Below, in pieces: positions 13,310-29,428 of a stretch of DNA of 64,000 nt. A program made the translations under genes and the position numbers. Numbering within the stretch: the first letter of the stretch is position 1; each line of letters starts with the position of its first letter. Origin of the DNA: an uncultured Chloroflexia bacterium (lineage in GTDB: Bacteria > Chloroflexota > Chloroflexia > QHBQ01 > JADMIH01); the NCBI GenBank assembly GCA_963797095.1, contig CAWCNY010000008.1:111431-175430 (forward strand), written 5' to 3'. The notes beneath the pieces were generated by a model. The model did no database searches and had not been told where the DNA came from. It saw only the letters and a list, made by a program, of their open reading frames with translations.

Positions 13310-13352
13310 ACTAGCCCAGGCTTCGTCTCAGCGATTGCTGAGGCAGATAATC

Positions 13353-13400
13353 GAGCCGGAAATGCCCTATCTAGAGCGCCCGGCTCTTTCTTTGTCTTTG
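13353..13400 (+). terminator. Rho-independent terminator candidate after the sugar ABC operon
   Basis: GAGCCGG...CCGGCTC followed by TTTCTTTGTCTTTG. Confidence 0.55.
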
Positions 13401-13484
13401 TGACCCATTCCACTCAGCAGAGAGATCAAACCTGACGCTGTTTCCCCTTCACATAGTTATTAAATATCTAGCAAAATAATATCT

Positions 13485-14093
13485 ATGCCGAGACAATTCA
13501 AACGTTCACCCCTCGCCCTGGCCATACTCGCCCTCTTTCACGAAGCGCCGATGCACCCATATCGAATGCAGCGGCTGATCAAAGATCGCGGCAAGGACCA
13601 GGTTATCAATGTCCAACAGCGTGCCAGTCTCTACCAGACCGTCGGCCAGCTCCTTCGCGCCGGGCTGATCACCTTCTGGGAGAATGAACGCAATGAAGGA
13701 TTTCCGGAGCGTACCGTCTACAAGCTCACCGATAAAGGCCACCACACAGCCGTGAATTGGATGCGGGAGATGCTCTCAACACCTGCTCAGGAATACCCGC
13801 AGTTCCCGGCGGCGATCTCCCTGCTACCACTTCTGACGACGAAGGACGCTATTCACCGGTTAGAGATACGGGAAGCCACGCTTGCCGGGCAAATAGCCTC
13901 CATTGATGCGGAAATACAAACATATGCGGTTAGCTTACCCAGGATCTTCTTGCTTGAATCAGAATACATGAGGACCATGCTTGACGCCGAACTGAAATGG
14001 GTGCGCTCGGTCATCGCAGACTTGGACAGCGGCCAGCTTACCTGGAACCAGGAATGGATGCAGCCATCTGAGCCGCCGCGGCCACAAGAGTGA
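13485..14093 (+). CDS. PadR-family transcriptional regulator
   Basis: PMHPYRM...ASLYQTVGQL...PERTVYKLTDKG winged helix plus a C-terminal helical domain. Confidence 0.9.
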   Translation: MPRQFKRSPLALAILALFHEAPMHPYRMQRLIKDRGKDQVINVQQRASLYQTVGQLLRAGLITFWENERNEGFPERTVYKLTDKGHHTAVNWMREMLSTPAQEYPQFPAAISLLPLLTTKDAIHRLEIREATLAGQIASIDAEIQTYAVSLPRIFLLESEYMRTMLDAELKWVRSVIADLDSGQLTWNQEWMQPSEPPRPQE

Positions 14094-14135
14094 TCGTCTT
14101 CCCACGCGAACATAGTCATTGAAAGGAGAATTCAA

Positions 14136-14825
14136 ATGGCAGTCAATACAGCAAACTCCAAAGCCCCAAAAGCTCACAAGGGATATAAAGGCATCGCCAT
14201 GGAAGGGCCTATCGCCACCTGGTACGCTCGGAATACTCGCTCCAGGATCGAGGATCAGCGGCGGTTAGCACACCTTTTCGCCGAGAGTGTCCCTGTGGGG
14301 GGCCGCGTGCTGGAAGTTGCACCTGGCCCGGGCTATCTATCAATTGAGCTTGCCAGGTTGGGGAAGTTTCGGGTCACGGGCCTCGATATCAGTCAAACCT
14401 TTGTCAAAATCGAGCGGCAGAATGCAGCGGAGGCAGGTGTCAACATTGATTTTAACCACGGAGATGCTACCAACATGCCGTTTGAGGATAACAGCTTTGA
14501 CTTTGCCGGGTGCGTAGCTGCTTTCAAGAATTTCGCACAACCTGTCCAGGCCCTCAACGAGTTCTCCCGGGTCCTCAAACCCGGCGGAACGGCCATGATC
14601 GTAGATCTTCGGCGAGATGCCTCCATCGAAGACCTCAATCAGGAAGTAAAGAGGATGAAGCTCAACCCACTAAACGCATTCCTCACCAGGTGGACGTTCA
14701 GACATGTGCTGCTCAAGAACGCCTACACCCGAGGCGAGTTCGAAGCGCTTGTGGCCGGGACGAACTTCAAACAGTGCGATATTCAGAACGACCTGATCGG
14801 CATGGAGATAACGCTCAAAAGATAG
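14136..14825 (+). CDS. Class I SAM-dependent methyltransferase
   Basis: VLEVAPGPG, GLDIS, GDATNMPFEDNSFD and RVLKPGG motifs. Confidence 0.92.
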   Translation: MAVNTANSKAPKAHKGYKGIAMEGPIATWYARNTRSRIEDQRRLAHLFAESVPVGGRVLEVAPGPGYLSIELARLGKFRVTGLDISQTFVKIERQNAAEAGVNIDFNHGDATNMPFEDNSFDFAGCVAAFKNFAQPVQALNEFSRVLKPGGTAMIVDLRRDASIEDLNQEVKRMKLNPLNAFLTRWTFRHVLLKNAYTRGEFEALVAGTNFKQCDIQNDLIGMEITLKR

Positions 14826-14856
14826 GCCAACATAAGGCGTAGAATAGAGTCGTTTC

Positions 14857-14895
14857 GGGGCCAGGGATGGCGATACGGTTGCGATCCCTGGCCCC
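14857..14895. terminator. GC-rich stem-loop downstream of the methyltransferase
   Basis: 12-bp stem GGGGCCAGGGAT/ATCCCTGGCCCC. Confidence 0.5.
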
Positions 14896-15203
14896 TCGCT
14901 ATGCGGCCTATATAGTACGAAAGTTCCGCCTCACCATTACTTAATGCTCAGTCCTACTTCTTGAGATTAATTCGCCGGTCACCCTATACTACCATTGATC
15001 GTGCCATGCCAGGTACCGGCAGATGGCATATCAAGTATGGGCATTCAGCACCGGGTAACACCTTACCTGACCGGCTTATTACCCGGCTTATTCTTCGTTT
15101 GTAAATGTTGACCTGGGGCCGGCCAAAACTCGTCACTCGTCACAAATGATCCTTCATGAGCGATATCGCCGGGACGCTACACTGAAATGAGGGTGCTGCA
15201 CAT

Positions 15204-15983
15204 ATGGAAGCCATAAACAGACAACTCGACGCCCAGGAGCTTGGAGAGAAACAGGAGCGATCCCTTGCCCGCATGGAGGAAGCCACAAGCTACCTCATCG
15301 GCATGGTCGAAAACCTTCATATAGGGGATATGGCTATGGTCGAAGATATGAAGTACCACCTCCATATCCTCCAAACCGAGCAGGAAACCTTCAAATCCAC
15401 TCTCACCAGGCAGAAAATGCAGTTAGCCTTCTACGGTTCATTCGACAAGCTGATTTACGATACCATCCAGCAGCCTGTATCCCAGGCAATTGACGTGGTA
15501 CGCTCCATCGTTGAGCAGGCCGAGCGACAGGCCGCCTCCATGGTAGAAGAAGCCCAGCACGAGCGCGACCTCATCCTGTCCAAAGCTCGTTTGCAGGCGA
15601 AGAAGATAAAGAGCAACGCCAACCAGGCTGCAACCAACGGTCCTGCGCAGGCCATGTCTATGTTTCCCACCACGCCCCTGCATCACCAGATGGACAAACA
15701 GACCGAACTGGTGGTCTCCGGCTTCAAGACATTCAGCCAGACGGTGGAGTTCCAGAAGGCGCTCATGTCCATTCCTGAGATCACACACGCCAAGGTACGA
15801 CTTATACAAAGGGGCCTGGTGAACCTGGAAGTGCGCCACGAGCCGGGCACCGACCTCGCCGAATGCATCGCTCAGCTTCCGGGCTTCGTATTCCGTACCG
15901 TGGCACAGGAGCAAGGTCTGCTCACCCTTGCCCTCGAGTCGGATTTGCCTTCCCACCAATCCCCGCCGGAACCGGCAGAGTAA
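15204..15983 (+). CDS. Hypothetical coiled-coil protein (DivIVA/FliH-like heptads plus a small C-terminal alpha/beta domain); first gene of the polysaccharide locus
   Basis: IVEQAERQAASMVEEAQHERDLILSKARLQAKKIK pattern; GAGG RBS. Confidence 0.7.
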   Translation: MEAINRQLDAQELGEKQERSLARMEEATSYLIGMVENLHIGDMAMVEDMKYHLHILQTEQETFKSTLTRQKMQLAFYGSFDKLIYDTIQQPVSQAIDVVRSIVEQAERQAASMVEEAQHERDLILSKARLQAKKIKSNANQAATNGPAQAMSMFPTTPLHHQMDKQTELVVSGFKTFSQTVEFQKALMSIPEITHAKVRLIQRGLVNLEVRHEPGTDLAECIAQLPGFVFRTVAQEQGLLTLALESDLPSHQSPPEPAE

Positions 15984-16001
15984 TAAGTCCCAGGACAAAA
16001 G

Positions 16002-16211
16002 TTGCAAGAATACTTACTGGCATTACTGGGCAGGATATGGCAGGTAATACACATCTGCGTGATCGTGCTCGTCTGGTTAGCCGTCTTCCTCGGGGCGTTC
16101 CTGGGTTATTTCGGATTGCTCGGAGTGGCGGTGGCTCTGTCGCTCTGTATCACTTACCTTATCGTGGCGCGCCGCGAGAAACAACGCTCCAAGAGCAACA
16201 AGCCCTGGTAA
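16002..16211 (+). CDS. Small two-TM membrane protein
   Basis: Hydrophobic 69-aa ORF with a basic tail, tightly filling the gap between operon genes; TTG start. Confidence 0.55.
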   Translation: MQEYLLALLGRIWQVIHICVIVLVWLAVFLGAFLGYFGLLGVAVALSLCITYLIVARREKQRSKSNKPW

Positions 16212-16228
16212 GTCAATAAGATACCGAG

Positions 16229-17989
16229 ATGATCACCGCACCAGTTTCTACCTCAAAACAAATCATATCGCTTGCAGGGCTCGTCCCGAACCCTGATGCG
16301 TTGCTGTTGCTTCAACCCCACGAAGCCTACGCCTGGAAGGTGCTGCCGCTAGGCTGGGAAAAGGAGAAACTGGTCGTCGCCACCCCGCAGCCGCTCGAAC
16401 CCCTCCAACTGAGTATGCTCAGGTTGAGGACCAGGTGGTCGATCATTCAGCGCGTCTGCTCTGAGATAGAGCTAAAGATAGCGCTGGACAAGTATTACGG
16501 CAAGCCAAGCCAGCCCCGGAACACGCTCCGCTCAATCGATCCGCTAGCCTTGTTGCGCGCCCTCGACATAGTGCCCAATGAGGTTGTGCGCCTCGCGCTC
16601 GGCCAGCAAGTCTACAATCGGGACGCCAGCGATAGCTGGCTTGATTGGTTGCAGCACCAGGGAGAGATCAGTGTTGAGCAGGTTACGCTGCTACGGGCGG
16701 CCCAGCACAACCGCCCCTACCTGCGCGTCACCCGGTTCAGCAGCCCACCCGGATTGGCCGTAATCGTCCCCGCGCTGCTCGCTGCTCGTTGGAATGCTGT
16801 GCCGTTCTATGCGGACGCCCATCGAGTATGGGTATATACGCCGGGCGATTCCCCGCTCCTGAATCCTGACGAGTTGTCGCGCACAGTTGGCCTTGAGGTG
16901 CGCCCTGTCTTCGTTACCAGGACCCAATGGGACATAGCCTTTATCCGCCTCTATAAAGGAGCGCAATCGCAATCCGGCCCGGCGCACACCGTAGACCACA
17001 TCCTCACAAATGAAGACTGGCTCAGCGCCTCCCAGAAGGCCCAGGCGCGTGAAGTGACGCGCCGCACCGGCACCCCCATATCTGCTCTGGCTCGCGGGAA
17101 AGGGTGGCTGGCAGAGCAAGATTGGCACAAAGTCGAGGCCCGCCGCTGGGGCCTCATCCCAGGTTACGAGGCGAAACCAGGTGATACCGCTACCCTGCAA
17201 GGGCTATCTTTCACAATCGATCTCTGCAAGCATTGGGGGGTGGTACCTCTCGCGTTGCGCGAAAATGACCTGCACATCGGCCTCTCTCAGACCGCACAAA
17301 GCCAGTTGATCTCGGCTGTATCCGCCATTACAAAGCACCCTGTCCACGCGCACCTGCTTACCAAAGAGCAATACAAACGAGCCTGGAGCCTCTATTTCGA
17401 GCAAGACCGTAATATAGTCTCGCCGGTGCCTACACTTGACGAGTGGCTCCTGGCCGGGGTGTATACCACCGCGGACCAGATGGAAAAAGCCCTGGAACAC
17501 GGCCAGGCCGAGAAGAAGCAGTTGGATGAAAGCCTTCTCGCGCTCGGCCTTGTAAGCACCACCGACCTCGCCGAGGTATTGAGCCTGCAAAGTGACCTCC
17601 CCTGGTTCCCCCTTGAAAACCCACCGCGCCCACTCTCCCTGGAGCAGCGCGTAGCGCTCCCTGCGGAGCAGCGCGTAGCGCTCCCTGCGGAGCAGCGCGT
17701 AGCGCTCCCTGCGGAGCAGCGCGTAGCGCTCCCTGCGGAGCAGCGCGTAGCGCTCCCTGCGGAGCAGCGCGTAGCGCTCCCTGCGGAGCAGCGCGTAGCG
17801 CTCCCTGCGGAGCAGCGCGCCAGGCTTGGTATGGCTCGCACAGTGGTGCCGTTGGTCGACCTCGGACGCTCACCTGATGGGGTAAAATCGGTGCTTGTGG
17901 CCGTGTCCGACCCATATGAATTGAGTGGGCAGAACAAAGGAGACCCGGAGGACGAAGGACAAAGGCCGGAAGGCGAAGGAGAGTTCTGA
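16229..17989 (+). CDS. Tandem MshEN/T2SSE_N-domain region; probably the N-terminal part of the GT2 synthase (frameshifted)
   Basis: Repeated modules (VLPL..LVVATPQP; AVPF..VWVYTP; VVPL..LHIGLS; VVPL..VLVAVSDP) with degenerate MshEN helices such as PTLDEWLLAGVYTTADQMEKALEHGQ. The last domain is cut after VAVSDPYEL. Confidence 0.75.
   Translation: MITAPVSTSKQIISLAGLVPNPDALLLLQPHEAYAWKVLPLGWEKEKLVVATPQPLEPLQLSMLRLRTRWSIIQRVCSEIELKIALDKYYGKPSQPRNTLRSIDPLALLRALDIVPNEVVRLALGQQVYNRDASDSWLDWLQHQGEISVEQVTLLRAAQHNRPYLRVTRFSSPPGLAVIVPALLAARWNAVPFYADAHRVWVYTPGDSPLLNPDELSRTVGLEVRPVFVTRTQWDIAFIRLYKGAQSQSGPAHTVDHILTNEDWLSASQKAQAREVTRRTGTPISALARGKGWLAEQDWHKVEARRWGLIPGYEAKPGDTATLQGLSFTIDLCKHWGVVPLALRENDLHIGLSQTAQSQLISAVSAITKHPVHAHLLTKEQYKRAWSLYFEQDRNIVSPVPTLDEWLLAGVYTTADQMEKALEHGQAEKKQLDESLLALGLVSTTDLAEVLSLQSDLPWFPLENPPRPLSLEQRVALPAEQRVALPAEQRVALPAEQRVALPAEQRVALPAEQRVALPAEQRVALPAEQRARLGMARTVVPLVDLGRSPDGVKSVLVAVSDPYELSGQNKGDPEDEGQRPEGEGEF
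17641..17820. repeat. Tandem array of 7.5 x 24 bp GGAGCAGCGCGTAGCGCTCCCTGC, in frame inside the CDS (EQRVALPA repeats)
   Basis: Read directly; same family as 3234-3358. Confidence 0.95.
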
Positions 17990-20426
17990 GGGTCTCAGCA
18001 AGCCCAACCTTAAGTTGCAGCCCTTGATTGTGCCCCGTGGCGCGCTGAAGTTGGCCGCCGATCTCAGCGAGGTAGGCTACAGTAGGCTGGAAGATTTCCT
18101 GCGCTATCTTGTGCAGAGGCGCTATCTGCGGCCTGAGCGCATGCCTGACATACTACAGGGCGCTCTCTCCGGCGCGCAGCCCCTCGATATGCTGCTAGTG
18201 CACGATCTGCCCGATGCCCTCACCGTCTATAAGGCCCTGGCAGACTTTACCGATCTGTCTCTCGTGCACCTGGAACCTGAATACAGGCAGGAAATGGTGG
18301 TAGACGCCCTGGGCAGGGTGAAGCGGCGTACCGCCATCCACGATCCTGTATCGACCAAGCCCAAACACTTTGCGCTTTTCGACGTGCAGCGCTGGACAGC
18401 TATGCCGGTATGGGAGGCCGATGGCCGCCTCATTGTAGCGATCGCCAACCCCCTGGATGAAGAGGCACGCAACGCCATCGAAGCAGCGATAGCCCCTGTT
18501 GGCGTCACCTGGGTGGTAAGCCCGCGCCATGAAGTGCTGGCGGCTATCTCTCGCAAAACCGGGCGCAAGACCATCGGCACCTATCTGCTGGAAGCAGGCA
18601 TCATCACCGCCGGTGCCCTGGACGAAGCCCTTGCCCTCTCGCAGAGGGTGGGTATTCGGGTGGGCCGTGCGCTGGTGCTATTGCGGCACACCAGCCAGGA
18701 GGAACTGGTATCGTTCCTGGCACGCCAGCAGCGCCTCCCCTTCTTCGACCTCGACCCTTCTATGATCGAACAACCTATCGCCCGCCTCCTGCCTGAGCGC
18801 GAGGCTCGCCTCTACGGGGCCCTCCCCGTGGCCGTCGACGACCAGAGCATCATGGTGGCAATGGTCGACCCCCTCGATACAGAGGCCATCAAAAATGTGG
18901 CCGCCATTCTTGACCGAGAGGTAGTGGTCGGGATCACCACCGAAGAAGCCTTCGAGCGCACCCTCGAAATGCTCTACCAGGAGGACTACACGTATAAAAG
19001 CACCCAGGACCTCTTCTTCCGCTACCCCGAAGAGTCGGCGTTCAGGGTCATCACCCCCTCCCAGAAGATCACGCTGGCCGTCATCGGGGTAGTCATCTTG
19101 CTCGCCCTCTTCTGGAATCCTGTGGTCCTGCTCGTCACAGCCAACGCTATCACAACTGCTTTCTACCTGGCCTTCTCGTTCCACCGGTTCTATCTCGTCT
19201 ACCGGGCGCTCTCTCATGACCTGGAGGTTCCCGTCAGCCGGGAGGAGATCGACGCCCTCGAAGATCGCGACCTGCCAATCTACACCATCCTTGTGCCCTT
19301 ATATAAGGAAGCCGCCGTGCTCCCCAAGCTCATGCACTCCATCACCGGGCTGGACTATCCACTCGCCAAGCTGGACGTAAAGCTGCTCATGGAGTTGAAC
19401 GATCAGGAGACGATCAGGGCAGCGCAGGCCCTCGACCTACCCCTCAACTTCGAACACCTCATCATCCCCAACTCCAAGCCCAAGACCAAGCCCAAGGCGT
19501 GCAACTACGGCCTGATCAAAGCAAAAGGTGAGTACGTGGTGATCTACGATGCCGAGGACATCCCCGACCACGACCAACTCAAGAAAGCCCTGGTGGCCTT
19601 CGAGAAGAGCGGCCCCCTAGTGGCGTGCATTCAGGCCAAGCTCAACTACTTCAACCGCAACCAGAACCTCCTTACCCGCTGGTTCACCACCGAGTACTCA
19701 ATGTGGTTCGACCTATTCCTGCCGGGGTTGGACGCCTCCGGCGCGCCCGTGCCCCTGGGCGGCACATCCAATCATTTCCGCCGCCGCCTGCTCGAAGAAT
19801 TGGGCGCGTGGGACCCCTTCAACGTGACCGAGGATGCCGACCTGGGCGTGCGCCTCTACAAGGCGGGCTACAAAACGGCCATGATAGACTCCACCACCTT
19901 CGAGGAAGCCAACAGCGACCTTGCCAACTGGGTGCGCCAACGATCCCGCTGGGTGAAGGGCTACATTCAGACCTGGCTGGTGCACATGCGCCACCCGGTC
20001 GCCCTGTGCCGGGAGATAGGGCCTAAAGCATTCCTCGGCTTCAACCTGACCGTGGGCGGCACCTTCATCGGCTTCCTGCTCAACCCCATTTACTGGCTCC
20101 TCACCGCCCTCTGGTTCCTCACCGAGTGGAGCGTGGTCCAACAGATGTTCCCGCCCGCCATCTATTACATAGGCGCGGTCAATCTCTTCATCGGCAATTT
20201 CGCCTTCACCTACATGAACGTGGCAGGATCTCTACGTCGTGAATTCTACGACATGGTCAAATACGCCCTTCTCAGCCCCATCTACTGGATTCTGATGAGC
20301 ATAGGCGCGTGGAAAGGCTTCATCCAGCTTCTCTACAAACCCTTCTACTGGGAAAAGACCATCCACGGCCTCGACAAAGGTGTGCCCAACATGCAGAAGG
20401 CCAACAGCCTGAAGGACCTGGTGTGA
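17925..20426 (+). CDS. Processive GT2 glycosyltransferase with N-terminal MshEN (c-di-GMP-binding-type) domains
   Basis: MshEN TIGTYLLEAGIITAGALDEALALSQRVGIRVGRALVLL..SQEELVSFLARQ; GT2 motifs VPLYKE, TKPKACNYG, YDAED, GGTSNHF, TEDADLG and QRSRW; flanking TM helices. Confidence 0.9.
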   Translation: MGRTKETRRTKDKGRKAKESSEGLSKPNLKLQPLIVPRGALKLAADLSEVGYSRLEDFLRYLVQRRYLRPERMPDILQGALSGAQPLDMLLVHDLPDALTVYKALADFTDLSLVHLEPEYRQEMVVDALGRVKRRTAIHDPVSTKPKHFALFDVQRWTAMPVWEADGRLIVAIANPLDEEARNAIEAAIAPVGVTWVVSPRHEVLAAISRKTGRKTIGTYLLEAGIITAGALDEALALSQRVGIRVGRALVLLRHTSQEELVSFLARQQRLPFFDLDPSMIEQPIARLLPEREARLYGALPVAVDDQSIMVAMVDPLDTEAIKNVAAILDREVVVGITTEEAFERTLEMLYQEDYTYKSTQDLFFRYPEESAFRVITPSQKITLAVIGVVILLALFWNPVVLLVTANAITTAFYLAFSFHRFYLVYRALSHDLEVPVSREEIDALEDRDLPIYTILVPLYKEAAVLPKLMHSITGLDYPLAKLDVKLLMELNDQETIRAAQALDLPLNFEHLIIPNSKPKTKPKACNYGLIKAKGEYVVIYDAEDIPDHDQLKKALVAFEKSGPLVACIQAKLNYFNRNQNLLTRWFTTEYSMWFDLFLPGLDASGAPVPLGGTSNHFRRRLLEELGAWDPFNVTEDADLGVRLYKAGYKTAMIDSTTFEEANSDLANWVRQRSRWVKGYIQTWLVHMRHPVALCREIGPKAFLGFNLTVGGTFIGFLLNPIYWLLTALWFLTEWSVVQQMFPPAIYYIGAVNLFIGNFAFTYMNVAGSLRREFYDMVKYALLSPIYWILMSIGAWKGFIQLLYKPFYWEKTIHGLDKGVPNMQKANSLKDLV

Positions 20427-20428
20427 CG

Positions 20429-22129
20429 ATGTCGCTTGTTACGACAAGAGACGAAAGACGCAGGACTGACGATGGGCTACGGACCGCAGACGATAGCTCC
20501 GCTCCTTCGGTTGCTGCCGTTCGTCCTGCGTCTTTCGCCCTTCGCCTTTCGTCCATCCTGGTGCGCAACCAGAATCTCCTCCTTTTTGTCGCGACAACAG
20601 CGCTCTTCATCGGGCTTGCGGCATGGCTGAGCTTCGGCGTGCAACTCGCCCTCGGTGATGCCCTTAGCCGCACTCTCAGCGCCGTTCGCATCGAGCACTC
20701 CCGCTTCCCCCGTCTGGCAGCCATAGGCTTCGTGTGGCCTCCCCTCCCCACGATGGCGCAACTTCCCCTCGTCATCAATCCCAACTGGGCCTATTACGGC
20801 TTCAGCGGCGGGATAATGACTGCCATCTCGGCGGGCGGCATGCTGGCCGTGCTCAACGGGGCTTTGCGATGGGCAGGCATAGGCGGCGGCTGGCGGGCGG
20901 GCGCGCTCCTCCTCTTCGCTATAAACCCCATGTGGCTCTTCTACGCTGGCAACGGCATGAGCGAGATGCCCTTCCTCCTCTTCTTCACCATAGCGAGCGC
21001 CGCTTTCATCCGGTGGCAGGCGGGCGGGCAGTGGCGCGACCTGGCCGTGGGCGGCATCGGAACCGCCCTCATGTTCGGCTGCCGCTACGATGGCATACCC
21101 TACGCTGGCGTCTTCGTGGTAGGTATGTGCCTCGTCTTCATCCTGCGGGGGCGCGCTTTCCACCCACCCCGCATCGAGGCCAACCTGCTTGCCTACCTCG
21201 TGCCCGTGACCTACGCGGTCGGCCTCTGGCTCTACTTCAACTACCTCATCATGGGCGACCCTCTCTTCTTCGCCCACAACCCCTACTCCAACACCTTCAT
21301 CGTGCGCAACGTCGCGTCCAACGCCGCCGTTATCGCCCTCGGTAGCTCGTGGGGGGCCACCGCCCAGTTCATGTTGATCACCCTCCTGGGCCTGTCGCCC
21401 CTCCTGCTTGCTCTGCTCGTGGCCGGCCTCGTCGAGATAGTGAGGCGGCGCGACGTGGGCATGGCGACTGTCATCCTCGTGCTATTTGCGGTGCCCCTGT
21501 TCCAGCTTTACAGCTATCGCACCGGGCAAACCTTCGGATTCTTGCGCTTCTTCATAAGTGTGCAACCCGCCGGGCTCCTCCTGGCCGCCGCTATCGTGCG
21601 CGACTGGAAGGGTTGGGCGCGGCGGGCGCTCCTCATCGGCACCCTGTTACTACTCGCCCTCGGCATGTGGACCAGCGCCGAAGCCATGCAGAAGGCGGGG
21701 CCGAAGCAGATATTTGCCGATCAGATCGTCTTTGAGGAAACCGGCTTCGTACACGCTCTGCTGAACCCAACCGCCCCCATCGACAACTACGCTGTCCAGC
21801 GCAACGCCGCCGATGTCCTGCAATCGCGCTTCCTGGATAAGCCTGTGACCATCATGGGCGACATCGATACAGACGAGGTTGTGCTCTTTAGCGCCATGCC
21901 GCAGAAGTTCATTGTGCCGAGCGACCCCGATTTCAACAGTGCCCTGCGCAGCCCCGCCTCCTATGCCGATTACATCCTGGTCTCCCAAACGAGCGCCGAT
22001 GATCCGCGGTTCAGGGTGATGCACGAAGCCTACCCGAACCTTTACGACAACGGCACGCCGGGCTTTGTGCTCGACAGCCAGATCGGGCCGTTCCGCCTCT
22101 ACCGCAGCCTCTCAAGGAGCGCCCCATGA
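20429..22129 (+). CDS. GT-C-fold (PMT/GT39-like) polytopic membrane glycosyltransferase
   Basis: About 11 TM helices with an acidic first loop GDALSR..AAIGFVWPPLP, NPMWLFYAGNGMSE, RYD and an extracellular C-terminal domain (FIVPSDPDF). ATG 2 nt after the upstream stop. Confidence 0.7.
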   Translation: MSLVTTRDERRRTDDGLRTADDSSAPSVAAVRPASFALRLSSILVRNQNLLLFVATTALFIGLAAWLSFGVQLALGDALSRTLSAVRIEHSRFPRLAAIGFVWPPLPTMAQLPLVINPNWAYYGFSGGIMTAISAGGMLAVLNGALRWAGIGGGWRAGALLLFAINPMWLFYAGNGMSEMPFLLFFTIASAAFIRWQAGGQWRDLAVGGIGTALMFGCRYDGIPYAGVFVVGMCLVFILRGRAFHPPRIEANLLAYLVPVTYAVGLWLYFNYLIMGDPLFFAHNPYSNTFIVRNVASNAAVIALGSSWGATAQFMLITLLGLSPLLLALLVAGLVEIVRRRDVGMATVILVLFAVPLFQLYSYRTGQTFGFLRFFISVQPAGLLLAAAIVRDWKGWARRALLIGTLLLLALGMWTSAEAMQKAGPKQIFADQIVFEETGFVHALLNPTAPIDNYAVQRNAADVLQSRFLDKPVTIMGDIDTDEVVLFSAMPQKFIVPSDPDFNSALRSPASYADYILVSQTSADDPRFRVMHEAYPNLYDNGTPGFVLDSQIGPFRLYRSLSRSAP

Positions 22130-23535
22130 TCCGGCAGCCTGCCAAATATCAGGTATCGCGTGGTCGCTACCGGGCGGAAAGCAAGGCGCACATATCCACG
22201 CCCGGCATCTGGTTGGCTGCGCTCGCCATCTTTCTGGCCTGTATAGCCCTGGCAACTTGGGCCACTACCGCCTTTGACCTGATAGCGCCCGATGTTCCTG
22301 CCCGCACAGGCACCGCAGCCGCCATGCTCTGGAGCCGCAACCCGCACTACGGAGCGCTCCTCACCGCCTGGCCTCCCCTCGCTACCGCTCTGCAATTGCC
22401 CCTGGTTTGGCTTATGGGCGCGGTCTTTAGCGCGCCCCAATTTGCGGCCAATCTCCTTTCCGCGCTTGCGACCGCCTTCTCTGTGCCGGTCCTGTACAAG
22501 ATGTTCGAGGCCCTTGACTTAAGGGGCGGCTGGCGCATGGCGCTCATGCTTCTTTATTTCGCCAACCCTCTGGTTCTCCTCTATACCGTGAGCGGCTCAA
22601 GCAACGCGCTTCTCCTTAGCTGCCTCATCTTCGCGACATACGGTTTCGTGCGCTGGTGGCGGCTCGACCAGGCAGGTTACATCGGCCTGAGCGGGCTGGG
22701 CGTGACCGCCGCCTTCCTGGTCAGCTACTGGGCGCTGCTCTTCGCCCCTCTATTGGCTGCCGCCTTCATCTACGGATCCCACAGGCGCGGCGCACCCCAC
22801 CCCTGGGTACGCCTCACCCTTTTCGCGATGACGCCCTTCTACACCCTCCTCTTCTGGCTCGCCTTCAACTTCATCTCAATGCGAGACCCCTTAGCCTTCC
22901 TGCACTCCAACACACTTGCTTCTTTGCCGGGCAACCCGCTCAACGACCCGGCAAGTGTATCGGTTTACGCTTTACCGGTCGCCTTCATTCTGCTTGCTTT
23001 GTTGCCCCAGAGCACAGCCAATTCTCCGCGCGCCTACGGAGTATGGATTGCGACGCTCCTCGCGGCCAGCCTCTTAGCCGCAGGCATCATTGTGTTGCCT
23101 GGTCAAGGCATAAATGGCGCATTGAACGATACAACCTCTCTATCCAACCCTACCCTCAACCTAACCGAAGAGCACGCTGTCGGCGACTACCTGCGCGCCC
23201 AGGTCCGCGCGAATGCCCTCATTCTGCTGGACGAGGGCGACAACTATTCGATTATTGAAAGAGCAGGCCATCCGCAACGCTTCGTCATACCGAGCGACCT
23301 CGACTACGACGACCTCGTAGCGAATGCACCTTCGCAAGTTGATTACATCCTGGTGCAGAAGAGCACAAGCCTACCGGGAGCGCTCCGGCAAGCCTATCCC
23401 ATGCTTTACGAGGGCAGATGGCTCTACTCCCAACTTGAACACGATTTCGGCGGAGAAATGGGCTGGCGACTCTACCGTGTCAGCCCCCCCAACGCTGGCG
23501 GTTGCCGATTGCCGGCCAAAGGAGATATATCATGA
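22126..23535 (+). CDS. Second GT-C-like membrane protein, diverged paralogue of 20429..22129
   Basis: Same motif order: SRNPHYGALLTAWPPL, NPLVLLYTVSGSS, FVIPSDLDY, YPMLY. ATGA overlaps at both ends. Confidence 0.65.
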   Translation: MIRQPAKYQVSRGRYRAESKAHISTPGIWLAALAIFLACIALATWATTAFDLIAPDVPARTGTAAAMLWSRNPHYGALLTAWPPLATALQLPLVWLMGAVFSAPQFAANLLSALATAFSVPVLYKMFEALDLRGGWRMALMLLYFANPLVLLYTVSGSSNALLLSCLIFATYGFVRWWRLDQAGYIGLSGLGVTAAFLVSYWALLFAPLLAAAFIYGSHRRGAPHPWVRLTLFAMTPFYTLLFWLAFNFISMRDPLAFLHSNTLASLPGNPLNDPASVSVYALPVAFILLALLPQSTANSPRAYGVWIATLLAASLLAAGIIVLPGQGINGALNDTTSLSNPTLNLTEEHAVGDYLRAQVRANALILLDEGDNYSIIERAGHPQRFVIPSDLDYDDLVANAPSQVDYILVQKSTSLPGALRQAYPMLYEGRWLYSQLEHDFGGEMGWRLYRVSPPNAGGCRLPAKGDIS

Positions 23536-25763
23536 AGCAAATTACAAATCGCAAAGGACGACTTACCAAACACTCGCCACTCGCCACTCGCCACTCGCTA
23601 CTCGCTCTAATCCTCCTAGCCTGCATCGCATGGCCTGCGGGAATAGCAGGCGCGCAGAGCGCTACGCCCGATCCCAACTCCTTTACGCTCAAGGACCGGG
23701 GTTACGACGTTACAACCGTGCGGGGGCTTGTGGCATCCACCGAGTTTTACCTGCCCGGCCCTGGCGCTGTGCAGTTGAGCACCGCCACCTCTGTCCGCCT
23801 CCACTTCAGCTATTCAGATGCCTTACAGGGCAACAAATCGAGCTTCAGCGTGCGCCTCAACGACCACGACATGATGGGCGCACCCCTCGTAGCTGGCAAA
23901 GGCTCCGATCAGTGGCTCGACGTACCCGTGCCTCCTCAGTTCGTCAGCCCCGACTTCAACAGGTTGGAAGTGGTCTTCTACATGCGCAGGGACACCGATA
24001 ACCAGACCTGTAGCGACCCCTACGACCCCCTCCTGTGGGCCACCGTCTTCCCCGATACTAAAATCACCTATGTCACGAGCGGACCTATGCAGTTCGATAC
24101 CACGCTGGACCTGGCCGACTATCCGGCCCCCATTTACAGGACCGCTTTCGGCCCCGACCCTGCCGTGCAAGTTGTACTACCCTCGACCCCCTCGGATACC
24201 GTAGTGTCTGCCGCCTCGTCGCTGGTGGCGTGGCTGGGCCAGGCAAGCGTCGGGCGTACCCTCCACCCGGTTGTGCACAACGTCAGCACGACGCAAGACC
24301 TGCCAACAATAGCCTCGGTAGCCATCGGCACGGGCAAGGACTTCGCCTGGGTAAGCGACCAGCCCTTGACTCTTCCCTACAGCAATACTATTGGCCTCTA
24401 CCTGGACACTCAGGGCAAACCTATTCCGGCTGATACAGGCGTGCTGCAACTTTTCATGCGGCAACAGGGCGGCAAGCCCGTAGCCCCCCTTCTTCTCGTC
24501 ACAGGCGGCAGCGATGAGGGAGCAAGACGTGCGGCTCTCAGCCTGGCGTCCAGCTCCTACATTAAATTGCTCCACGGGCAGTATGCCCTCATCTCCCAGC
24601 CTCCCGATATTGATAACCTCTCCGTCGGAGATATCATCCCCGGCTCGCGCACCTTTGGCGAGCTTACCGTCAGCACAAACGACCCCACCGTGCGCGGGAG
24701 CGGGCGGCAGTCGGTCAGCGTGTCGTTCTTCGTGCCCCAGAGCTTTACGTTCGACAGCCAGCCGCAGGTCACAGTTCATTTCAGCCACGCCGACGGCCTG
24801 GATGACAGGTCCCTCCTGATCGTGGAGGTGAACGGTACGGCGGTGGGCAGCACTCGCCTGGACGAAAAAAACGCCACCGGCGGCACCCTCACCCTTGCTA
24901 TCCCACCTTCGGTGATCCGTCCCGGCGGAAACTCCCTCTCGGCCATCTTCGATATGCGTCCACAAGACGACAACCCGTGCGACTCGGCTTTCGATGACGT
25001 GGCCTGGGGCACCATCCACCACGACAGCGACCTCAACCTCCCCTTCGGCGAATCCACCTCCCAGCCCGACCTGGGCACGCTTGGTGCACCTTTCATCCAG
25101 GCGGGCGCTATACGCGACACCACGCTGGTCCTCCCTCAGGCCCCCGACACACAGGTAGTATCCCAGACCCTCACGCTGGCCGCCAGGCTGGGCGAGCAGA
25201 CGCGCAGCGATATGACCTACCTGCCGGTCGTATTGGCTAACGAGCCCGCATCCCTACCATCCACTCATCTCATCGCCCTAGGGGTTCCCGGCGCTCAACC
25301 CCTTATATCCGCCTTGCAAGCGTCGCTGCCTCTGCAGTTCAACTCGTCGGGACAACTGGAATGGCGCGGCAAGAAGGTAAGCGAAGCCGCCGACGCCCCT
25401 GTCCTCCTGTCCGTGCAGGACCAACAGCCGGTAGGAATCCTGCAAATGGTGTCATCCCCCTGGCAAAATGGCCGCACCGTGCTGCTGGTGAGCGGCACCA
25501 GCAGGACCTCGGTAGGCTGGGCCGTTGATGCCGTCACCGCTGGCTCCCTGACTGGCAACCTGGCGGTTATTGCCGAAGATGGGCACGCCTCTACCCTTAC
25601 CTTGCAAGAGAGCAAGCCAATCACCGTTGTAACCATCCAGCAGGGGTCGCCCGTGTGGGCCGCTATACTTGCGGGTGTGGTCGCGATAGTTTTATTAGTA
25701 GTAACCGTCATCCTGACTGCTGCGAGGATGCGGGCAACAGCTCCGGAGGCCGCCAGTGAATAA
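23532..25763 (+). CDS. BcsB-like (cellulose synthase regulatory/co-polymerase) membrane-anchored extracellular protein
   Basis: Signal peptide, then two repeats of a beta-sandwich (LHFSYS..SVRLND..FNRLEVVF..C..LWATV / VHFSHA..VEVNG..NSLSAIF..C..AWGTI), each followed by an alpha/beta domain; SPWQNGRTVLLVSG; C-terminal TM helix. Confidence 0.8.
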   Translation: MKQITNRKGRLTKHSPLATRHSLLALILLACIAWPAGIAGAQSATPDPNSFTLKDRGYDVTTVRGLVASTEFYLPGPGAVQLSTATSVRLHFSYSDALQGNKSSFSVRLNDHDMMGAPLVAGKGSDQWLDVPVPPQFVSPDFNRLEVVFYMRRDTDNQTCSDPYDPLLWATVFPDTKITYVTSGPMQFDTTLDLADYPAPIYRTAFGPDPAVQVVLPSTPSDTVVSAASSLVAWLGQASVGRTLHPVVHNVSTTQDLPTIASVAIGTGKDFAWVSDQPLTLPYSNTIGLYLDTQGKPIPADTGVLQLFMRQQGGKPVAPLLLVTGGSDEGARRAALSLASSSYIKLLHGQYALISQPPDIDNLSVGDIIPGSRTFGELTVSTNDPTVRGSGRQSVSVSFFVPQSFTFDSQPQVTVHFSHADGLDDRSLLIVEVNGTAVGSTRLDEKNATGGTLTLAIPPSVIRPGGNSLSAIFDMRPQDDNPCDSAFDDVAWGTIHHDSDLNLPFGESTSQPDLGTLGAPFIQAGAIRDTTLVLPQAPDTQVVSQTLTLAARLGEQTRSDMTYLPVVLANEPASLPSTHLIALGVPGAQPLISALQASLPLQFNSSGQLEWRGKKVSEAADAPVLLSVQDQQPVGILQMVSSPWQNGRTVLLVSGTSRTSVGWAVDAVTAGSLTGNLAVIAEDGHASTLTLQESKPITVVTIQQGSPVWAAILAGVVAIVLLVVTVILTAARMRATAPEAASE
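23571..23605. repeat. Heptamer microsatellite CACTCGC x5 within the signal-peptide region
   Basis: Read directly; encodes HSPLATRHSLL. Confidence 0.9.
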
Positions 25764-26604
25764 AATATACACCCCTAGGGTCCTTACGAGCCTGGGCGTA
25801 ACAGGTTTCGCGGCCATTATCGCTGCGGCCATCTGGAACCGCCCCTCAGATATACAGTTCCTAATGCTTGCCCTGCTGACCATGACCGCACTGGGCGCGG
25901 TCACCCACCCCCACTGGCTGGTCAGCGCCTGCGCTGCCGGCTGTGCGATCACCCTGTACGTCACGGTGTGGGTTGTGAGCGGCGGCGCGACCTTCAGCAT
26001 GCAAGAGGGCTTACTCGGTATATGCCTCCTGGTGGTCACCGCCCTGGGAGCCTGGAGTTTGTCTCGCGGGCTGCGTGGCACCGAGCAGAGATTGGTCCAT
26101 CAAGCTCAATTGATTGAAGACCTCACCATATACGACCAGCAGACCGGCGCTGTGCGAGCCGGGCACACCCAGCAGATTCTCAACTACGAGATAATGCGTG
26201 CTCGCCGGTATAGTGAGCCCCTTACGGTGTCTGTCATACAGATGGTGGACGAGCAGAGTCGCAAGCCGGTAAGCAACATGGGAGTCGACAAGGAGAGGCG
26301 CAAGAAGGTAACCGAGCTATTCCTCAATAAGCTGCGCGCTGTGGACCGTGTCGGCTATGGCCCGTCGCTCGAATGGGTGCTGATCTTGCCCAACACGCCG
26401 CGCACGGGTGCGGAAACCCTGGCCGTCAGACTGATACATATGGTCGCCGAGCAGATCGGGGTAACCATCCTGGTAGGTTTAGCCAGTTTCCCCGAAGACG
26501 GAAGCGATACCGAAAGCCTCATGAATGAGGCACGCGCCGCCCTCGAATTTGGCCGCATGAACGCCGTATCGATGGTCAGCCAGTCTCTCTTCGACACCCT
26601 CTAA
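25756..26604 (+). CDS. Four-TM protein with a degenerate GGDEF domain retaining the RxxD I-site (PelD/PssE-like c-di-GMP receptor)
   Basis: DQQTG..EIMRARRYSEPLTV..LRAVDRVGYGPSLEWVLILPNT..GLASFPEDG. RAVD is present, and GGDEF is replaced by GPSLE. Confidence 0.8.
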   Translation: MNKIYTPRVLTSLGVTGFAAIIAAAIWNRPSDIQFLMLALLTMTALGAVTHPHWLVSACAAGCAITLYVTVWVVSGGATFSMQEGLLGICLLVVTALGAWSLSRGLRGTEQRLVHQAQLIEDLTIYDQQTGAVRAGHTQQILNYEIMRARRYSEPLTVSVIQMVDEQSRKPVSNMGVDKERRKKVTELFLNKLRAVDRVGYGPSLEWVLILPNTPRTGAETLAVRLIHMVAEQIGVTILVGLASFPEDGSDTESLMNEARAALEFGRMNAVSMVSQSLFDTL

Positions 26605-26984
26605 AAGGCCATCCCGCCCGACAACCTGCAACCTGGCTCTAAACATGAAACATCCCGAATTTTAGCGCCAGCTTCGCGGGCGCGCAATCTGGTTCTAAAA
26701 ACTGTACTAAAGTATACCCCAGAACCTGTCCGGTTTTGCCCCACCAATGCCTTTATGTTAACGAGGGCAAGAATAATCATCTTCCAACCGACCTCCCAAA
26801 AAACCGATCACCGACTGTACCAAAGTACACAAGTACAGTAAGAGCCTGCGACTCCAGCCCTCCCACCAAAGAAGGTCCGCAAAAGTGCCTCGCTAAAGGT
26901 TAGTGTGGTACAATTCCTCAGATCAACTTCAAGGATTGATTATTACTCAAATCACCCAATTACAAAATAGTAGGCTCAAAGGTG

Positions 26985-27977
26985 ATGAATAAACCAAGCG
27001 TTCAGGTGCGAAACACGGCAAGCAACAAGCAAACCACAACCAGCTCCGCACACCTGGCATTCACCCGCCAGCGAATTACCAGGCTGAAATGGATCACCAC
27101 GCTGGCACCCACCGCAGCCGTGTTCCTCTCCGAAACCATCCGCCACGATCTGTTCGAGCACCTTTTACCGCTACCTGTCGCCTATGGCAACCTCCTTACA
27201 GGCTTGTTGGTCCTGGTACTCGCCTATGGCTTCTCGGAGGTGATCTTTGGCATCGTGTTGCGCCTGCAAGACCAGGCACTGGCGCGAAGTCGAGAGGTAG
27301 CCGCTCTCGAAGCGGCGGTGCAGGAGCGCGAGCGTCTGAGCCGTGAGCTTCATGATGGCGTGGCCCAACTCGTCTCCTACCTGATGATACGGCTCGATAC
27401 GGTCGAATCGCTCGTCGAAAGCGAGCAGCGAGAGCAAGCCCTGGCCGAGTTAGAGCAGTTGCATGGCGTGGCCGATGATATCTACGTCGACATTCGCGAG
27501 TCGATTGCAGGGCTGCGCACCAATCTCAACGGTAAGCTGCTGGTGCCCGCCCTGCGAGATTATCTTGACGCGTTCGAGGAGCGGCACAATTTGCCCATAA
27601 AGCTAGAAACGAAAGGACAGCCTTTTCGCTTGCCAACTCAGGTGGCGGCCCAGATTTTCAGAATAGTGCAGGGAGCGCTGGCCAACGTGCGTAAGCACTC
27701 GGCGGCGCAACATGCCTGGGTCTTACTGAGCTATAGCCCAAGCAAACTGGAAATGACAATTGGTGACGATGGCGTTGGCTTCGACGTTGCTAACCTGTCT
27801 GGCACAGACACAGTAGGGCTTGACGCCATGCGCGAGCGCGCCGCCACGTTGGGCGGCACCTGCCGGGTGGAGAGCCTGCCAGGCCGGGGCACTCGCGTAA
27901 TCGTCAATGTGCCCTTATCAAAGAGAGAGAAGGTAGGCAATGCAACCGCCCCACCCCTTGAAGTTGCTGCTCGTTGA
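26985..27977 (+). CDS. Two-TM NarX-type sensor histidine kinase (HisKA_3)
   Basis: ERERLSRELHDGVAQ, QGALANVRKHS and DDGVGF motifs. Confidence 0.9.
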   Translation: MNKPSVQVRNTASNKQTTTSSAHLAFTRQRITRLKWITTLAPTAAVFLSETIRHDLFEHLLPLPVAYGNLLTGLLVLVLAYGFSEVIFGIVLRLQDQALARSREVAALEAAVQERERLSRELHDGVAQLVSYLMIRLDTVESLVESEQREQALAELEQLHGVADDIYVDIRESIAGLRTNLNGKLLVPALRDYLDAFEERHNLPIKLETKGQPFRLPTQVAAQIFRIVQGALANVRKHSAAQHAWVLLSYSPSKLEMTIGDDGVGFDVANLSGTDTVGLDAMRERAATLGGTCRVESLPGRGTRVIVNVPLSKREKVGNATAPPLEVAAR

Positions 27978-28626
27978 TGATCACGACCTCTTTAGAGAGG
28001 GGCTGGTAGCGCTCTTTTCGTACCAGCACGATTTCGTGGTGGTCGGTGAGGCGGGGGACGCCGAAAGCGCTATCGCCCAGGCTCGCAAGCTCCGGCCCGA
28101 CCTCGTGCTGATGGATATCGACCTGTCCGGTGGCGATGGTGTGCTCGCCACCCAGCAAATCAAGAGTGAGATGCCTGGTGTTGCCGTCGTGATGCTCACA
28201 GTCTACGACGATACCGAGAAACTGCTGGAAGCCATCAAAGCCGGTGCTGAGGGCTATCTGGTCAAGAACATTCGCGCCTCTGAGTTAATTGTGCAATTGC
28301 GCGGCCTGGCTCATGGCGAGGCTGCCATAACAAGGCGTATGGCGACGCGCGTCCTCAACGAGTTCCGCAAGCAAGATAATGATGGCGAGTCCGAGCAACC
28401 CACCGGAACCGACCCGCAGCTAACGCCCAGGGAGCTTGAGGTGCTCGAACTGGTGGCTGCTCGCAACTCCAATCGAGAGATCGCCGATACCCTCACGATC
28501 AGCGAGTATACGGTCAAGAACCACATCAAGAGTATTCTCACCAAGCTGCAATTGCGTAGCAGACACCAGGCAGCCATGTATGGAGTAGCTCGCGGCTGGA
28601 TACACCCTACGGATAGCACTCAGTAG
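27940..28626 (+). CDS. NarL/LuxR-family response regulator
   Basis: LVDDHDLFREG, LMDID and LTPRELEVL..SNREIA..TVKNHI motifs. Confidence 0.93.
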   Translation: MQPPHPLKLLLVDDHDLFREGLVALFSYQHDFVVVGEAGDAESAIAQARKLRPDLVLMDIDLSGGDGVLATQQIKSEMPGVAVVMLTVYDDTEKLLEAIKAGAEGYLVKNIRASELIVQLRGLAHGEAAITRRMATRVLNEFRKQDNDGESEQPTGTDPQLTPRELEVLELVAARNSNREIADTLTISEYTVKNHIKSILTKLQLRSRHQAAMYGVARGWIHPTDSTQ

Positions 28627-28696
28627 CCCTTTCCCAATCCAAGGGCTGGCCCTTTAAGTCCAATGGCGATCGCCAGAATAGCCCTTTTATAGCCCT
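28624..28696. promoter_or_regulatory. Cluster of TRGCCCT heptamer half-sites, candidate binding sites for the adjacent response regulator
   Basis: TAGCCCT at 28624, 28679 and 28690, TGGCCCT at 28647 and an inverted AGGGCTG at 28642, all upstream of the copper cluster. Confidence 0.45.
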
Positions 28697-28789
28697 CCAT
28701 TCACGCCGGTAGGCATTGCGGCTCACATGCCCACGCCCTATCCTAAGAACCATGACTATCCGGGCAGGGTAGAGGAGGTAGTGAAAGGT

Positions 28790-29428
28790 ATGTTCACATC
28801 ACATGGCAGCCTTGCTGCTCACAAGGAGAAAGCTGACGATGCCTCATATGGGGGCCGGACGCGGGCCGCGCGCACGCTCTGGCCGGTGTTACTGCTACTC
28901 ATCCTATCGCTGGTACTGTCGGCGTGCGGCGGGACGGGCACAGACAGCGGAAATTCCGGCAATACGAAAATAGACCTCACCGTATCGCCCAACCCCCCTG
29001 TCGTTGGCCCCGCCCAATTGACCATCACCCTCAAAGACGGTTCCGGCAACGCGATCAACGATGCCACTGTGACGGTCGAGGGCGACATGACCCACGCGGG
29101 CATGGTGCCGGTGCAAGCCGATGCCACCAGCATGGGTAATGGCACCTACATGGTCAACAATTTCAATTTCAATATGGGCGGCGATTGGGTGCTCACCGTA
29201 TCGGCTACCTTGCCCGGCGGCGACAAAGCCCAGGGCACTTTCAACTACAATGGGGTTGCCGGTGGGATGGAGATGACAGGCACGATGACCCCTGGCATGG
29301 AGATGACAGGCACGATGACCCCTGGCATGGAGATGACAGGCACGATGACACCAGGCCTGAGTGATAACATGGAAATGCAGGGAATGCCAACGCCAACTGA
29401 CACGCCCTGTCCTTGTAGCAGTCCTTGA
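28790..29428 (+). CDS. YtkA/FixH-like lipoprotein with a Met-rich C-terminal tail (candidate Cu chaperone)
   Basis: Lipobox LSAC; GDMTHAGMVP..GTY..FNMGGDWVLTV; (GMEMTGTMTP)x3; terminal CPC; GAGGAGG RBS. Confidence 0.8.
   Translation: MFTSHGSLAAHKEKADDASYGGRTRAARTLWPVLLLLILSLVLSACGGTGTDSGNSGNTKIDLTVSPNPPVVGPAQLTITLKDGSGNAINDATVTVEGDMTHAGMVPVQADATSMGNGTYMVNNFNFNMGGDWVLTVSATLPGGDKAQGTFNYNGVAGGMEMTGTMTPGMEMTGTMTPGMEMTGTMTPGLSDNMEMQGMPTPTDTPCPCSSP
29267..29356 (+). repeat. 3 x 30-bp in-frame repeat encoding MEMTGTMTPG
   Basis: Read directly. Confidence 0.95.

Follow-up and report, generated by a model that had tools for sequence, protein, structure and literature searches.

Gene content of the locus

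The window analysed here is a 64,000-nt stretch of contig CAWCNY010000008.1 (assembly GCA_963797095.1) from an uncultured Chloroflexia bacterium. Its plus strand carries, at 15204-26604, eight consecutive and tightly packed open reading frames (ORFs), O1 to O8, whose junctions are gaps of 18, 17 and 2 nt and overlaps of 4, 4 and 8 nt. They encode a coiled-coil protein, a small hydrophobic protein, a glycosyltransferase family 2 (GT2) synthase that is divided over two ORFs and carries six MshEN modules, two glycosyltransferases of the GT-C type, a BcsB-like protein and a membrane receptor with a degenerate GGDEF domain. An earlier, sequence-only reading of this DNA had proposed a tightly coupled operon with this gene set, and the coordinates, the Pfam and NCBIfam models and Foldseek agree with it. 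Judging from the predicted domains, the operon is probably controlled by cyclic di-GMP (c-di-GMP), and the locus is rather likely to encode a c-di-GMP-gated polysaccharide machine of the Xag type.

The synthase and its MshEN modules

O3 (16229..17989, plus strand, as are all features below) and O4 (17925..20426) hold the two parts of the synthase. O3 contains MshEN modules 1-4 (Pfam MshEN 2.5e-25) and is a separate ORF in the assembly, and O4 contains modules 5-6, the transmembrane (TM) region and a processive-type GT2 of the XagB family. By Pfam, O4 has two MshEN domains followed by GT2 families (Glyco_trans_2_3 5.4e-27), with the motifs DAED at residue 542, TED at 635 and QRSRW at 672. These DxD, TED and QxxRW motifs are invariant in 19 homologs. 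A BcsA structure matches the glycosyltransferase and TM region of O4 at 7e-8, and several TM helices lie C-terminal to the catalytic domain. Homologs of the synthase are annotated at JGI as "glycosyltransferase XagB".

Pfam finds three MshEN stretches in O3 and two in O4. Counting with a hidden Markov model (HMM) built from the canonical last MshEN module gives six modules in the window, four in O3 (residues 14-92, 114-244, 256-393 and 402-479) and two in O4. Six modules are also present in 18 of 20 array-type homologs; the other two have five, and one of these is cut by a contig end. The c-di-GMP-binding four-helix subdomain at the N-terminus is always missing from module 1, and module 6 directly precedes the first TM helix. 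The best solved structure match to the array is Thermus PilF (1.3e-69, 4 stretches). In the genome of the window MshEN was found at this locus only. The sequence-only reading was right in placing about six MshEN modules before a processive GT2 with these motifs, and it overlooked that a frame break keeps them from being a single ORF.

The c-di-GMP-motif model NF053729 has a cut-off of 38 bits, which module 6 (O4 217-268) passes at 40.5 bits and module 4 (O3 407-454) narrowly misses at 30.5 bits, so that module 6 is the only one to pass in the window. A relaxed motif was also applied, consisting of two 24-residue half-motifs about 5 residues apart in the four-helix subdomain, following the account available in PMC5013675, with at most two mismatches allowed in each half. 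Among the first five modules, both half-motifs pass in none of 18 homologs for modules 1-3, in 6 of 18 for module 4 and in 5 of 18 for module 5. In the window itself, modules 1-3 and 5 have no half-motif with two or fewer mismatches. The earlier proposal of two different c-di-GMP inputs stands as far as the two receptor types are concerned, MshEN and a degenerate GGDEF domain with RxxD, but within the array only one or two of the six modules look ligand-competent by their motifs.

The synthase is split in the assembly. In a three-frame translation the frame of O4 is open from 17923 onwards and that of O3 runs as far as 17989, and alignment by eye against homologs P0002-P0004 places this 67-nt frame-change zone (17923..17989) in the linker that joins modules 4 and 5, a variable part of the protein. 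The closest homologs, P0002-P0006, are single fused proteins of 1318-1367 aa with identities of 83%, 72%, 68%, 63% and 60%, and the synthase is unsplit in all 18 six-module relatives examined. The O3 and O4 frames are open over 586 and 833 aa, with no further damage, and O4 has no good start or ribosome-binding context. Public data at the frame break consist of three low-depth soil-metagenome runs from one study, with shares of the stretch of 0.29, 0.23 and 0.09, and 17941-18074 lies outside all public contigs from those three runs. A search of O3 against 1.84 billion representatives returned 182 matches at E<=0.001 and no convincing natural split form among them; many of these matches cover the low-complexity repeat at residues 472-532 only.

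That repeat (17641..17819) is a 24-bp tandem repeat of 7.5 copies with 100% matches and a Tandem Repeats Finder (TRF) score of 358, and it encodes LPAEQRVA eight times. It sits between the two subdomains of module 4, to which it adds about 56 residues, and P0002, the homolog with 83% identity, carries LSPEQRAA once at the corresponding position. The repeat could be unstable, or its length could vary.

O3 terminates within the sequence AAGGAG-AG-UUC-UGA-GGG (17972-17992), with a Shine-Dalgarno-like AAGGAG, 2 nt and then UUC UGA. A +1 step at UUC|U would run exactly into the O4 frame (…EGEGEF-EGLSKPNLKLQPLIVP), and the layout recalls prfB-type frameshift sites. Programmed +1 frameshifting of this kind could set the ratio of free array to full-length synthase, but it appears unlikely in view of the purine-rich linker, the poor re-pairing and the unsplit relatives. 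The stop context is probably due to chance or to a recent indel.

The GT-C partners

O5 (20429..22129; the ORF spans 20309-22129 and the likely start is ATG 20429) is predicted to be a GT-C-fold membrane glycosyltransferase similar to XagC, and O6 (22126..23535) is a second GT-C-like paralog. O5 has no Pfam match and O6 matches PMT_2 at 9.8e-9; in BLASTP the two match each other at 2e-19 over the TM part and at 8e-11 over the C-terminal domain. An AlphaFold (AF2) model of O5 built from 36 homologs (pLDDT 89.4, pTM 0.90) includes a small C-terminal extracytoplasmic domain. In Foldseek it gives 31 matches at E<=0.001, and all of those listed are GT-C enzymes. The top match is ArnT (5f15; E 1e-6, TM-score 0.53-0.55), and the others include STT3, ALG12, DPY19, AftA, PMT and PglB. 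The predicted structure confirms the GT-C membrane fold of O5. A profile of the O5 family searched against PDB sequences returned nothing meaningful (best E 0.071). Public annotation of O5 relatives varies between GT39/ArnT family, hypothetical protein and "ABC transporter".

D77 of O5 lies in the first extracytoplasmic loop, just after TM1, in the motif D-A-x-S-R. It is aspartate in 27 of 36 homologs and glutamate in 5, and the aspartate and arginine of this loop align with an aspartate and an arginine in O6.

Three-component extracytoplasmic glycosylation uses a synthase of polyprenyl-phosphate sugars, a flippase and a GT-C transferase. In a Clostridium metagenome-assembled genome, the gene at L023:2536-3675, between the GT-C gene and XagB, encodes a GT2 with a fused GtrA/DPMS TM domain, and relatives of this gene flank the GT-C/XagB pair in five more loci (L015, L016, L019, L020 and L038), an arrangement that is the signature of such glycosylation. 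The six loci with GtrB/GtrA-like genes are all from Firmicutes and include Clostridium, Paenibacillus, Sporolactobacillus and Oscillospiraceae. The genome of the window has DPMS/GtrB-like candidates outside the operon. By analogy, the Firmicutes genes support decoration from a polyprenyl-phosphate sugar donor. The sequence-only reading had suggested that a GT-C pair uses a lipid-linked donor; the fold is now confirmed and the idea of the donor gains support from these genes.

The BcsB-like protein and the RxxD receptor

O7 (23532..25763; ORF 23502-25763, likely start 23532) is BcsB-like, with a Pfam BcsB match of 2.4e-71 that covers profile positions 5-606 of 606. Hydropathy indicates a TM helix at the C-terminus and, at the N-terminus, a signal or anchor. 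Against the NCBIfam BcsB models O7 is far below the cut-offs (124 bits versus 750).

O8 (25756..26604) has four N-terminal hydrophobic segments, followed by RAVD, five residues and then PSLEW in place of GGDEF. It matches single GGDEF models below cut-off only (TIGR00254 5e-6), and a profile of 10 orthologs matches solved GGDEF domains (5e-23), its RxxD falling on RQSD, the I-site of the template. R194 and D197 of this motif are invariant in the 10 orthologs, none of which has GG[DE]EF. The architecture is closest to the YdaK/PssE type and is not that of PelD, which the sequence-only reading had named beside PssE.

The genome has at least 11 GGDEF proteins. Intact diguanylate cyclases adjoin the synthase in nine related loci, one of which also has a degenerate receptor. 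The operon of locus L091 (G068:C10) starts with a 1043-aa intact-GGDEF protein upstream of O1 and ends with a degenerate RxxD receptor, and it therefore encodes both a local cyclase and a receptor.

The accessory proteins O1 and O2

O1 (15204..15983) is predicted to be a cytoplasmic coiled-coil protein with a conserved C-terminal domain, based on its AF2 model (pLDDT 81.6) and profile searches. The model has helices at 2-36, 43-75 and 83-142 and a beta-alpha-beta domain at 165-244, and the conserved C-terminal domain of about 85 aa appears to have a ferredoxin-like fold. The similarity to DivIVA is weak and below cut-off (E 1.4e-4). A fold search with the O1 model found no PDB match at E<=0.001, and an atlas search found Chloroflexota hypothetical clusters only, at 0.83-0.85, which serve as leads only. 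Homologs of O1 lie upstream of the synthase in L002, L003, L082, L084-L087 and L089-L091 and downstream in L088 and L092, and by these matches O1 is a Chloroflexota-specific accessory protein.

O2 (16002..16211) is a hydrophobic protein of 69 aa with two TM segments, as read from the ORF and its hydropathy, and its homologs occupy the same position in nine Chloroflexota loci. Most Chloroflexota loci with an array-type synthase and the full gene set have O1- and O2-like genes upstream of the synthase.

A second O1 paralog has a receiver-like N-terminus, judged by eye, in place of the coiled coil and the same C-terminal domain of about 85 aa. Such paralogs are at L002:8317-9135, L084:12630-13625, L085:2171-3289 and L086:12784-13977.

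Distribution of the operon

The GT2 family is represented by at least 601 stretches in the genome scan. They come from Chloroflexota, Actinomycetota, Bacillota, Bacteroidota, Pseudomonadota, candidate phyla radiation (CPR) groups and others. The 80 best loci of these were surveyed, with a neighbour defined as a gene within 3 kb of the GT2 and an O5-like gene as one of at least 250 aa matching at E<=1e-20. An O5-like gene is near the GT2 in 63 of the 80 loci, in many phyla, a BcsB-like gene in 36, and both in 31. The recurring gene order is BcsB-GT2-GT-C in loci from Mucilaginibacter, Alpha- and Gammaproteobacteria and Ignavibacteria, and GT2-GT-C in those from Nocardioides, Rhodococcus, Mycolicibacterium, Solirubrobacterales, Paenibacillus and CPR lineages. 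Related operons of other phyla contain hydrolases of glycoside hydrolase (GH) families GH113 and GH5, which hint, by analogy, at a mannan-like backbone in those versions.

Within the phylum, the GT2 is found at E<=1e-60 in 57 of 400 other Chloroflexota genomes, a sample from which the window's own family is absent. Forty of the matching loci were examined. An array-form synthase is present in 12 of the 40. The full set of array-GT2, GT-C (1-3 copies), BcsB and RxxD receptor is found in 7 of these 12 loci, from seven different families (L082, L084, L085, L087, L089, L091 and L093); of the remaining five, two are cut by contig ends and three have no BcsB within the examined range. L065 (Brevefilum) has the same full set in a different order, and L003 has all parts except BcsB. 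On these matches, at least seven families of Chloroflexota share the complete set of eight parts. The sequence-only reading had named a lack of joint conservation as the finding that would count against it, and the gene set proves to be conserved together, in seven families, as expected of the uncharacterised conserved polysaccharide-synthase operon that it had proposed.

Eight of the 40 Chloroflexota loci (L094-L100 and L120; for example L096:6294-9686) encode the GT2 and the GT-C in one ORF of 957-1234 aa, without MshEN. Both halves were verified by BLASTP, and the loci belong to one Chloroflexota family and its relatives. This natural fusion argues for physical coupling of the two proteins.

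In the class mates of the window's genome the gene is either absent or present with a single module (46-48% identity), and the operon is thus patchy in the phylum. The nearest operon relatives lie in other classes of the phylum.

Comparison with known systems

Xanthomonas XagB has MshEN and GT2 domains by Pfam and shows 43% identity to O4 residues 214-826 (tblastn, locus L037). XagC, a polytopic protein encoded directly after XagB, is a distant homolog of O5 (hhalign probability 84.6%, E 6.8e-6, 187 columns). In a gammaproteobacterial locus (L035) the order is BcsB-XagB-O5-like-GH113, and the O5-like gene matches the O5 HMM at 1e-93. This is the bcsB-xagBCD arrangement that is described for stalk-forming iron oxidisers (PMC4643136). 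Xag is known only from genetics, in which the xag genes are reported to be needed for biofilm when c-di-GMP turnover is disturbed (PMC3609779). By its sequence relationships, the core of GT2 and GT-C, often with BcsB, is a widespread Xag type that is genetically named and biochemically uncharacterised. The sequence-only reading had seen the locus as a mix of parts from the Nfr, Bcs and Pel/Pss systems; this is right only in part, since the core is an Xag-type module and not an ad hoc mosaic.

The window nevertheless differs from Xag in several respects. Xag has one MshEN module and one XagC, whereas the window has six modules and two GT-C proteins. Xag also has the GH113 hydrolase XagD (L037, L035) and an extra GT2 upstream, neither of which is in the window, and it lacks the RxxD receptor, O1 and O2, all of which are present here.

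The YdaJKLMN system of Bacillus subtilis and PssA-E of Listeria resemble the window, by published descriptions, in combining a GT2 synthase and a BcsB-like protein with a degenerate GGDEF receptor that is anchored in the membrane. YdaK is described as having 4 TM helices and RxxD five residues before the degenerate motif; it is required for exopolysaccharide (EPS), and I-site mutants abolish EPS (PMC5422440). PssE binds c-di-GMP with a Kd of 0.79 uM, and the receptor is reported to be essential for EPS (PMC4125290). The Listeria polymer is given as a beta-1,4-ManNAc backbone with alpha-1,6-Gal branches (PMC13492145), which indicates that a system of synthase and BcsB can make a decorated polymer. 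Yda and Pss differ from the window in that their GT2s are reported without MshEN and a GH8 hydrolase is present; the window has the MshEN array and no GH8.

In E. coli, NfrB is described as a GT2 EPS synthase that is activated via a fused c-di-GMP-binding MshEN, which NfrB needs (PMC8669469). NfrB has a single C-terminal MshEN, whereas the window has six N-terminal modules, a reversed domain order. NfrB partners with the outer-membrane protein NfrA (NfrBA-YbcH), without BcsB or GT-C, whereas the window has both. Membership in the NfrB family was rejected: the model NF008411 matches the MshEN part of O3/O4 only (profile 469-645), at 54-57 bits against a cut-off of 1170. The earlier suggestion that the GT2 is akin to NfrB is accordingly dropped, the better of the two scores being 57 bits against 1170.

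BcsA-BcsB resembles the window in having a full-length BcsB homolog with a C-terminal anchor and a GT2 with DxD, TED and QxxRW. BcsAB cellulose synthase was rejected as well, as there is no PilZ in O4 and no BcsZ, BcsC or other Bcs subunit, and O4 scores far below the cellulose synthase models (CelA TIGR03030 77 bits against 699; PRK11498 60 against 992). Pel membership was rejected because model searches found no GAF, GT4 or Pel family in the operon. A profile search of the proteins of the operon and its flanks found no PilZ, deacetylase, GH8 or porin, in line with the absences listed by the sequence-only reading, and none of the glycoside hydrolase families.

The tandem MshEN/GSPII array is shared with PilF of Thermus thermophilus, where three modules are placed on a type IV pilus ATPase, compared with six on a glycosyltransferase here. 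The three tandem domains of PilF are reported to differ in c-di-GMP binding, and not all of them bind (PMC12002112, PMC11731258).

A literature search, which was thin on subscription journals, found no description of an XagC fold, of a pairing of BcsB with GT-C or of a multi-module MshEN synthase. What is new here is the elaborated Chloroflexota form of a c-di-GMP-regulated synthase-dependent EPS system, and its most interesting feature is the family-wide coupling of GT2 and GT-C.

Proposed mechanism and alternatives

The locus rather likely encodes a synthase-dependent machine for a polysaccharide, of the Xag type and gated by c-di-GMP, in which the GT2 polymerises and exports the chain, the BcsB-like protein receives it, the GT-C paralogs modify it outside from lipid-linked donors, and control is exerted via the I-site receptor and MshEN module 6, perhaps with module 4 as well. 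In such a machine, c-di-GMP made by one of the GGDEF proteins of the genome would bind to MshEN module 6, possibly to module 4, and to the RxxD motif of O8. Both inputs would release or activate the GT2, by analogy to the MshEN of NfrB and to the YdaK/PssE receptors. The GT2 would polymerise a beta-linked backbone from a nucleotide sugar and thread the chain through its own channel, and O7 would take up the chain outside the membrane. O5 and O6, in a complex with the synthase, would modify the emerging chain on the outer face, with polyprenyl-phosphate sugars made elsewhere in the genome as donors. O1, O2 and the four degenerate modules of the array may form a scaffold or localisation device.

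Several points weigh against this reading. The operon contains no GtrB-like donor synthase, flippase, hydrolase or sugar-nucleotide gene, and decoration is for this reason inferred from other phyla. The link between XagC and O5 is suggested by the hhalign value of 84.6% and by gene position, and experimental work on family members consists of Xanthomonas genetics only. The HMMs of the survey were built from the same loci that they scored, with some drift and short out-of-frame matches, and seven of the 36 BcsB-like matches are weak and actinobacterial; one of these (L069) was tested and is unconfirmed by Pfam. In module 6, the most conserved in its motif, both half-motifs pass in 9 of 18 homologs, and the window modules miss the relaxed consensus, module 6 with 1 and 3 mismatches and module 4 with 4 and 2. 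With its split synthase and the 56-aa repeat insertion in module 4, this copy may also be impaired.

The last point leads to the possibility that the copy of this genome is decaying or switched off, a real 1-nt indel having split the synthase and a recent repeat expansion having disrupted module 4. This would be compatible with the other readings, and we regard it as unlikely. The two frames in the assembly fit with it, as all 18 six-module homologs are unsplit, and so do the repeat, 100% identical and absent from the 83% identical homolog, the poor start context of O4 and the patchiness of the operon, with no match above 66% identity among representative genomes of the class. However, all other genes of the operon are intact and tightly coupled, both halves of the synthase are open over their whole length, and the break is in a variable linker, so that the two polypeptides could still cooperate; an assembly indel is also possible, since reads do not span the site. 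The GT-C proteins could, by a different account that keeps the rest of the machine and also seems unlikely, leave the chain undecorated and be ligases that anchor the finished polymer to an acceptor in the envelope (lipid, protein or wall polymer), or be non-catalytic translocation subunits. The near-universal pairing with the GT2 and the fused forms fit an integral subunit as well as an enzyme, most loci, including the window, lack a dedicated donor synthase, and the number of GT-C genes per locus ranges from 1 to 3. This account is countered by the acidic first-loop residue typical of active GT-C enzymes, which is kept in 32 of 36 homologs, and by the GtrB/GtrA-type genes of the six Firmicutes loci, which are expected if a polyprenyl-phosphate monosaccharide is the donor.

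It is very improbable that the GT2 is non-processive and makes a lipid-linked sugar or glycolipid from which the GT-C transfers the sugar outside, as in ArnC/ArnT, GtrB/GtrC and DPMS/PMT, with BcsB binding the acceptor. Obligate pairing of GT2 and GT-C is the hallmark of such two-step systems, and an XagB-like protein was once annotated as a monoglucosyl-diacylglycerol synthase (PMC4643136). Yet QxxRW and TED are invariant, BcsA matches over the glycosyltransferase and TM region, several TM helices follow the catalytic domain, and the GT2 is accompanied by BcsB. The same Firmicutes operons encode a GtrB-like GT2 in addition to the synthase, and related operons encode the polymer hydrolases GH113 and GH5. 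Beyond the Xag-type machine that we favour, a hybrid assembly route can be proposed tentatively, although we find it rather doubtful. Here a processive, self-translocating GT2 would be obligately coupled, and in some lineages fused, to a GT-C that decorates or anchors the chain with polyprenyl-phosphate sugars, and the Chloroflexota form would be gated by the six-module MshEN array, with four ligand-blind modules docking the coiled-coil proteins, and by the YdaK-like I-site protein.

Synthase-dependent EPS systems (cellulose, poly-N-acetylglucosamine or PNAG, alginate, Pel, Nfr and Pss) are the main output of c-di-GMP signalling, and the Xag-type family is as widespread as several of these. 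The constant pairing of GT2 and GT-C and their fusion would link two pathways that textbooks treat as separate. The six-module array and the second, I-site receptor are a natural test case for the integration of several c-di-GMP inputs, and the array also offers a route to the role of ligand-blind MshEN modules. In filamentous Chloroflexota, the operon may point to the genes behind a polymer of the sheath or matrix.

Surroundings of the operon

About 380 bp of non-coding DNA flanks the operon on either side. An Rfam search of 13000-29000 at E<=1 found neither a c-di-GMP riboswitch nor any other family, apart from two chance snoRNA rows, and the promoter and terminator scans gave signals not above shuffled expectation. 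The G+C content is 0.60-0.62 at window positions 16001-26000, compared with 0.54-0.58 in the flanks, and the GC skew is strongly negative. Horizontal acquisition of the operon is possible, given this composition and the nearest relatives in other classes of the phylum.

Genes on both sides are unrelated to the operon, with a sugar ABC transporter, a PadR protein and a methyltransferase upstream and a HisKA_3 kinase and LuxR-type regulator downstream. The kinase and the LuxR-type response regulator (26982-28626) are directly 3' of the operon. Further upstream, at 5968-7536, a single ORF combines an ABC-transporter ATPase with HisKA_3 and HATPase_c domains, which is either an unusual combination or a mis-joined ORF.

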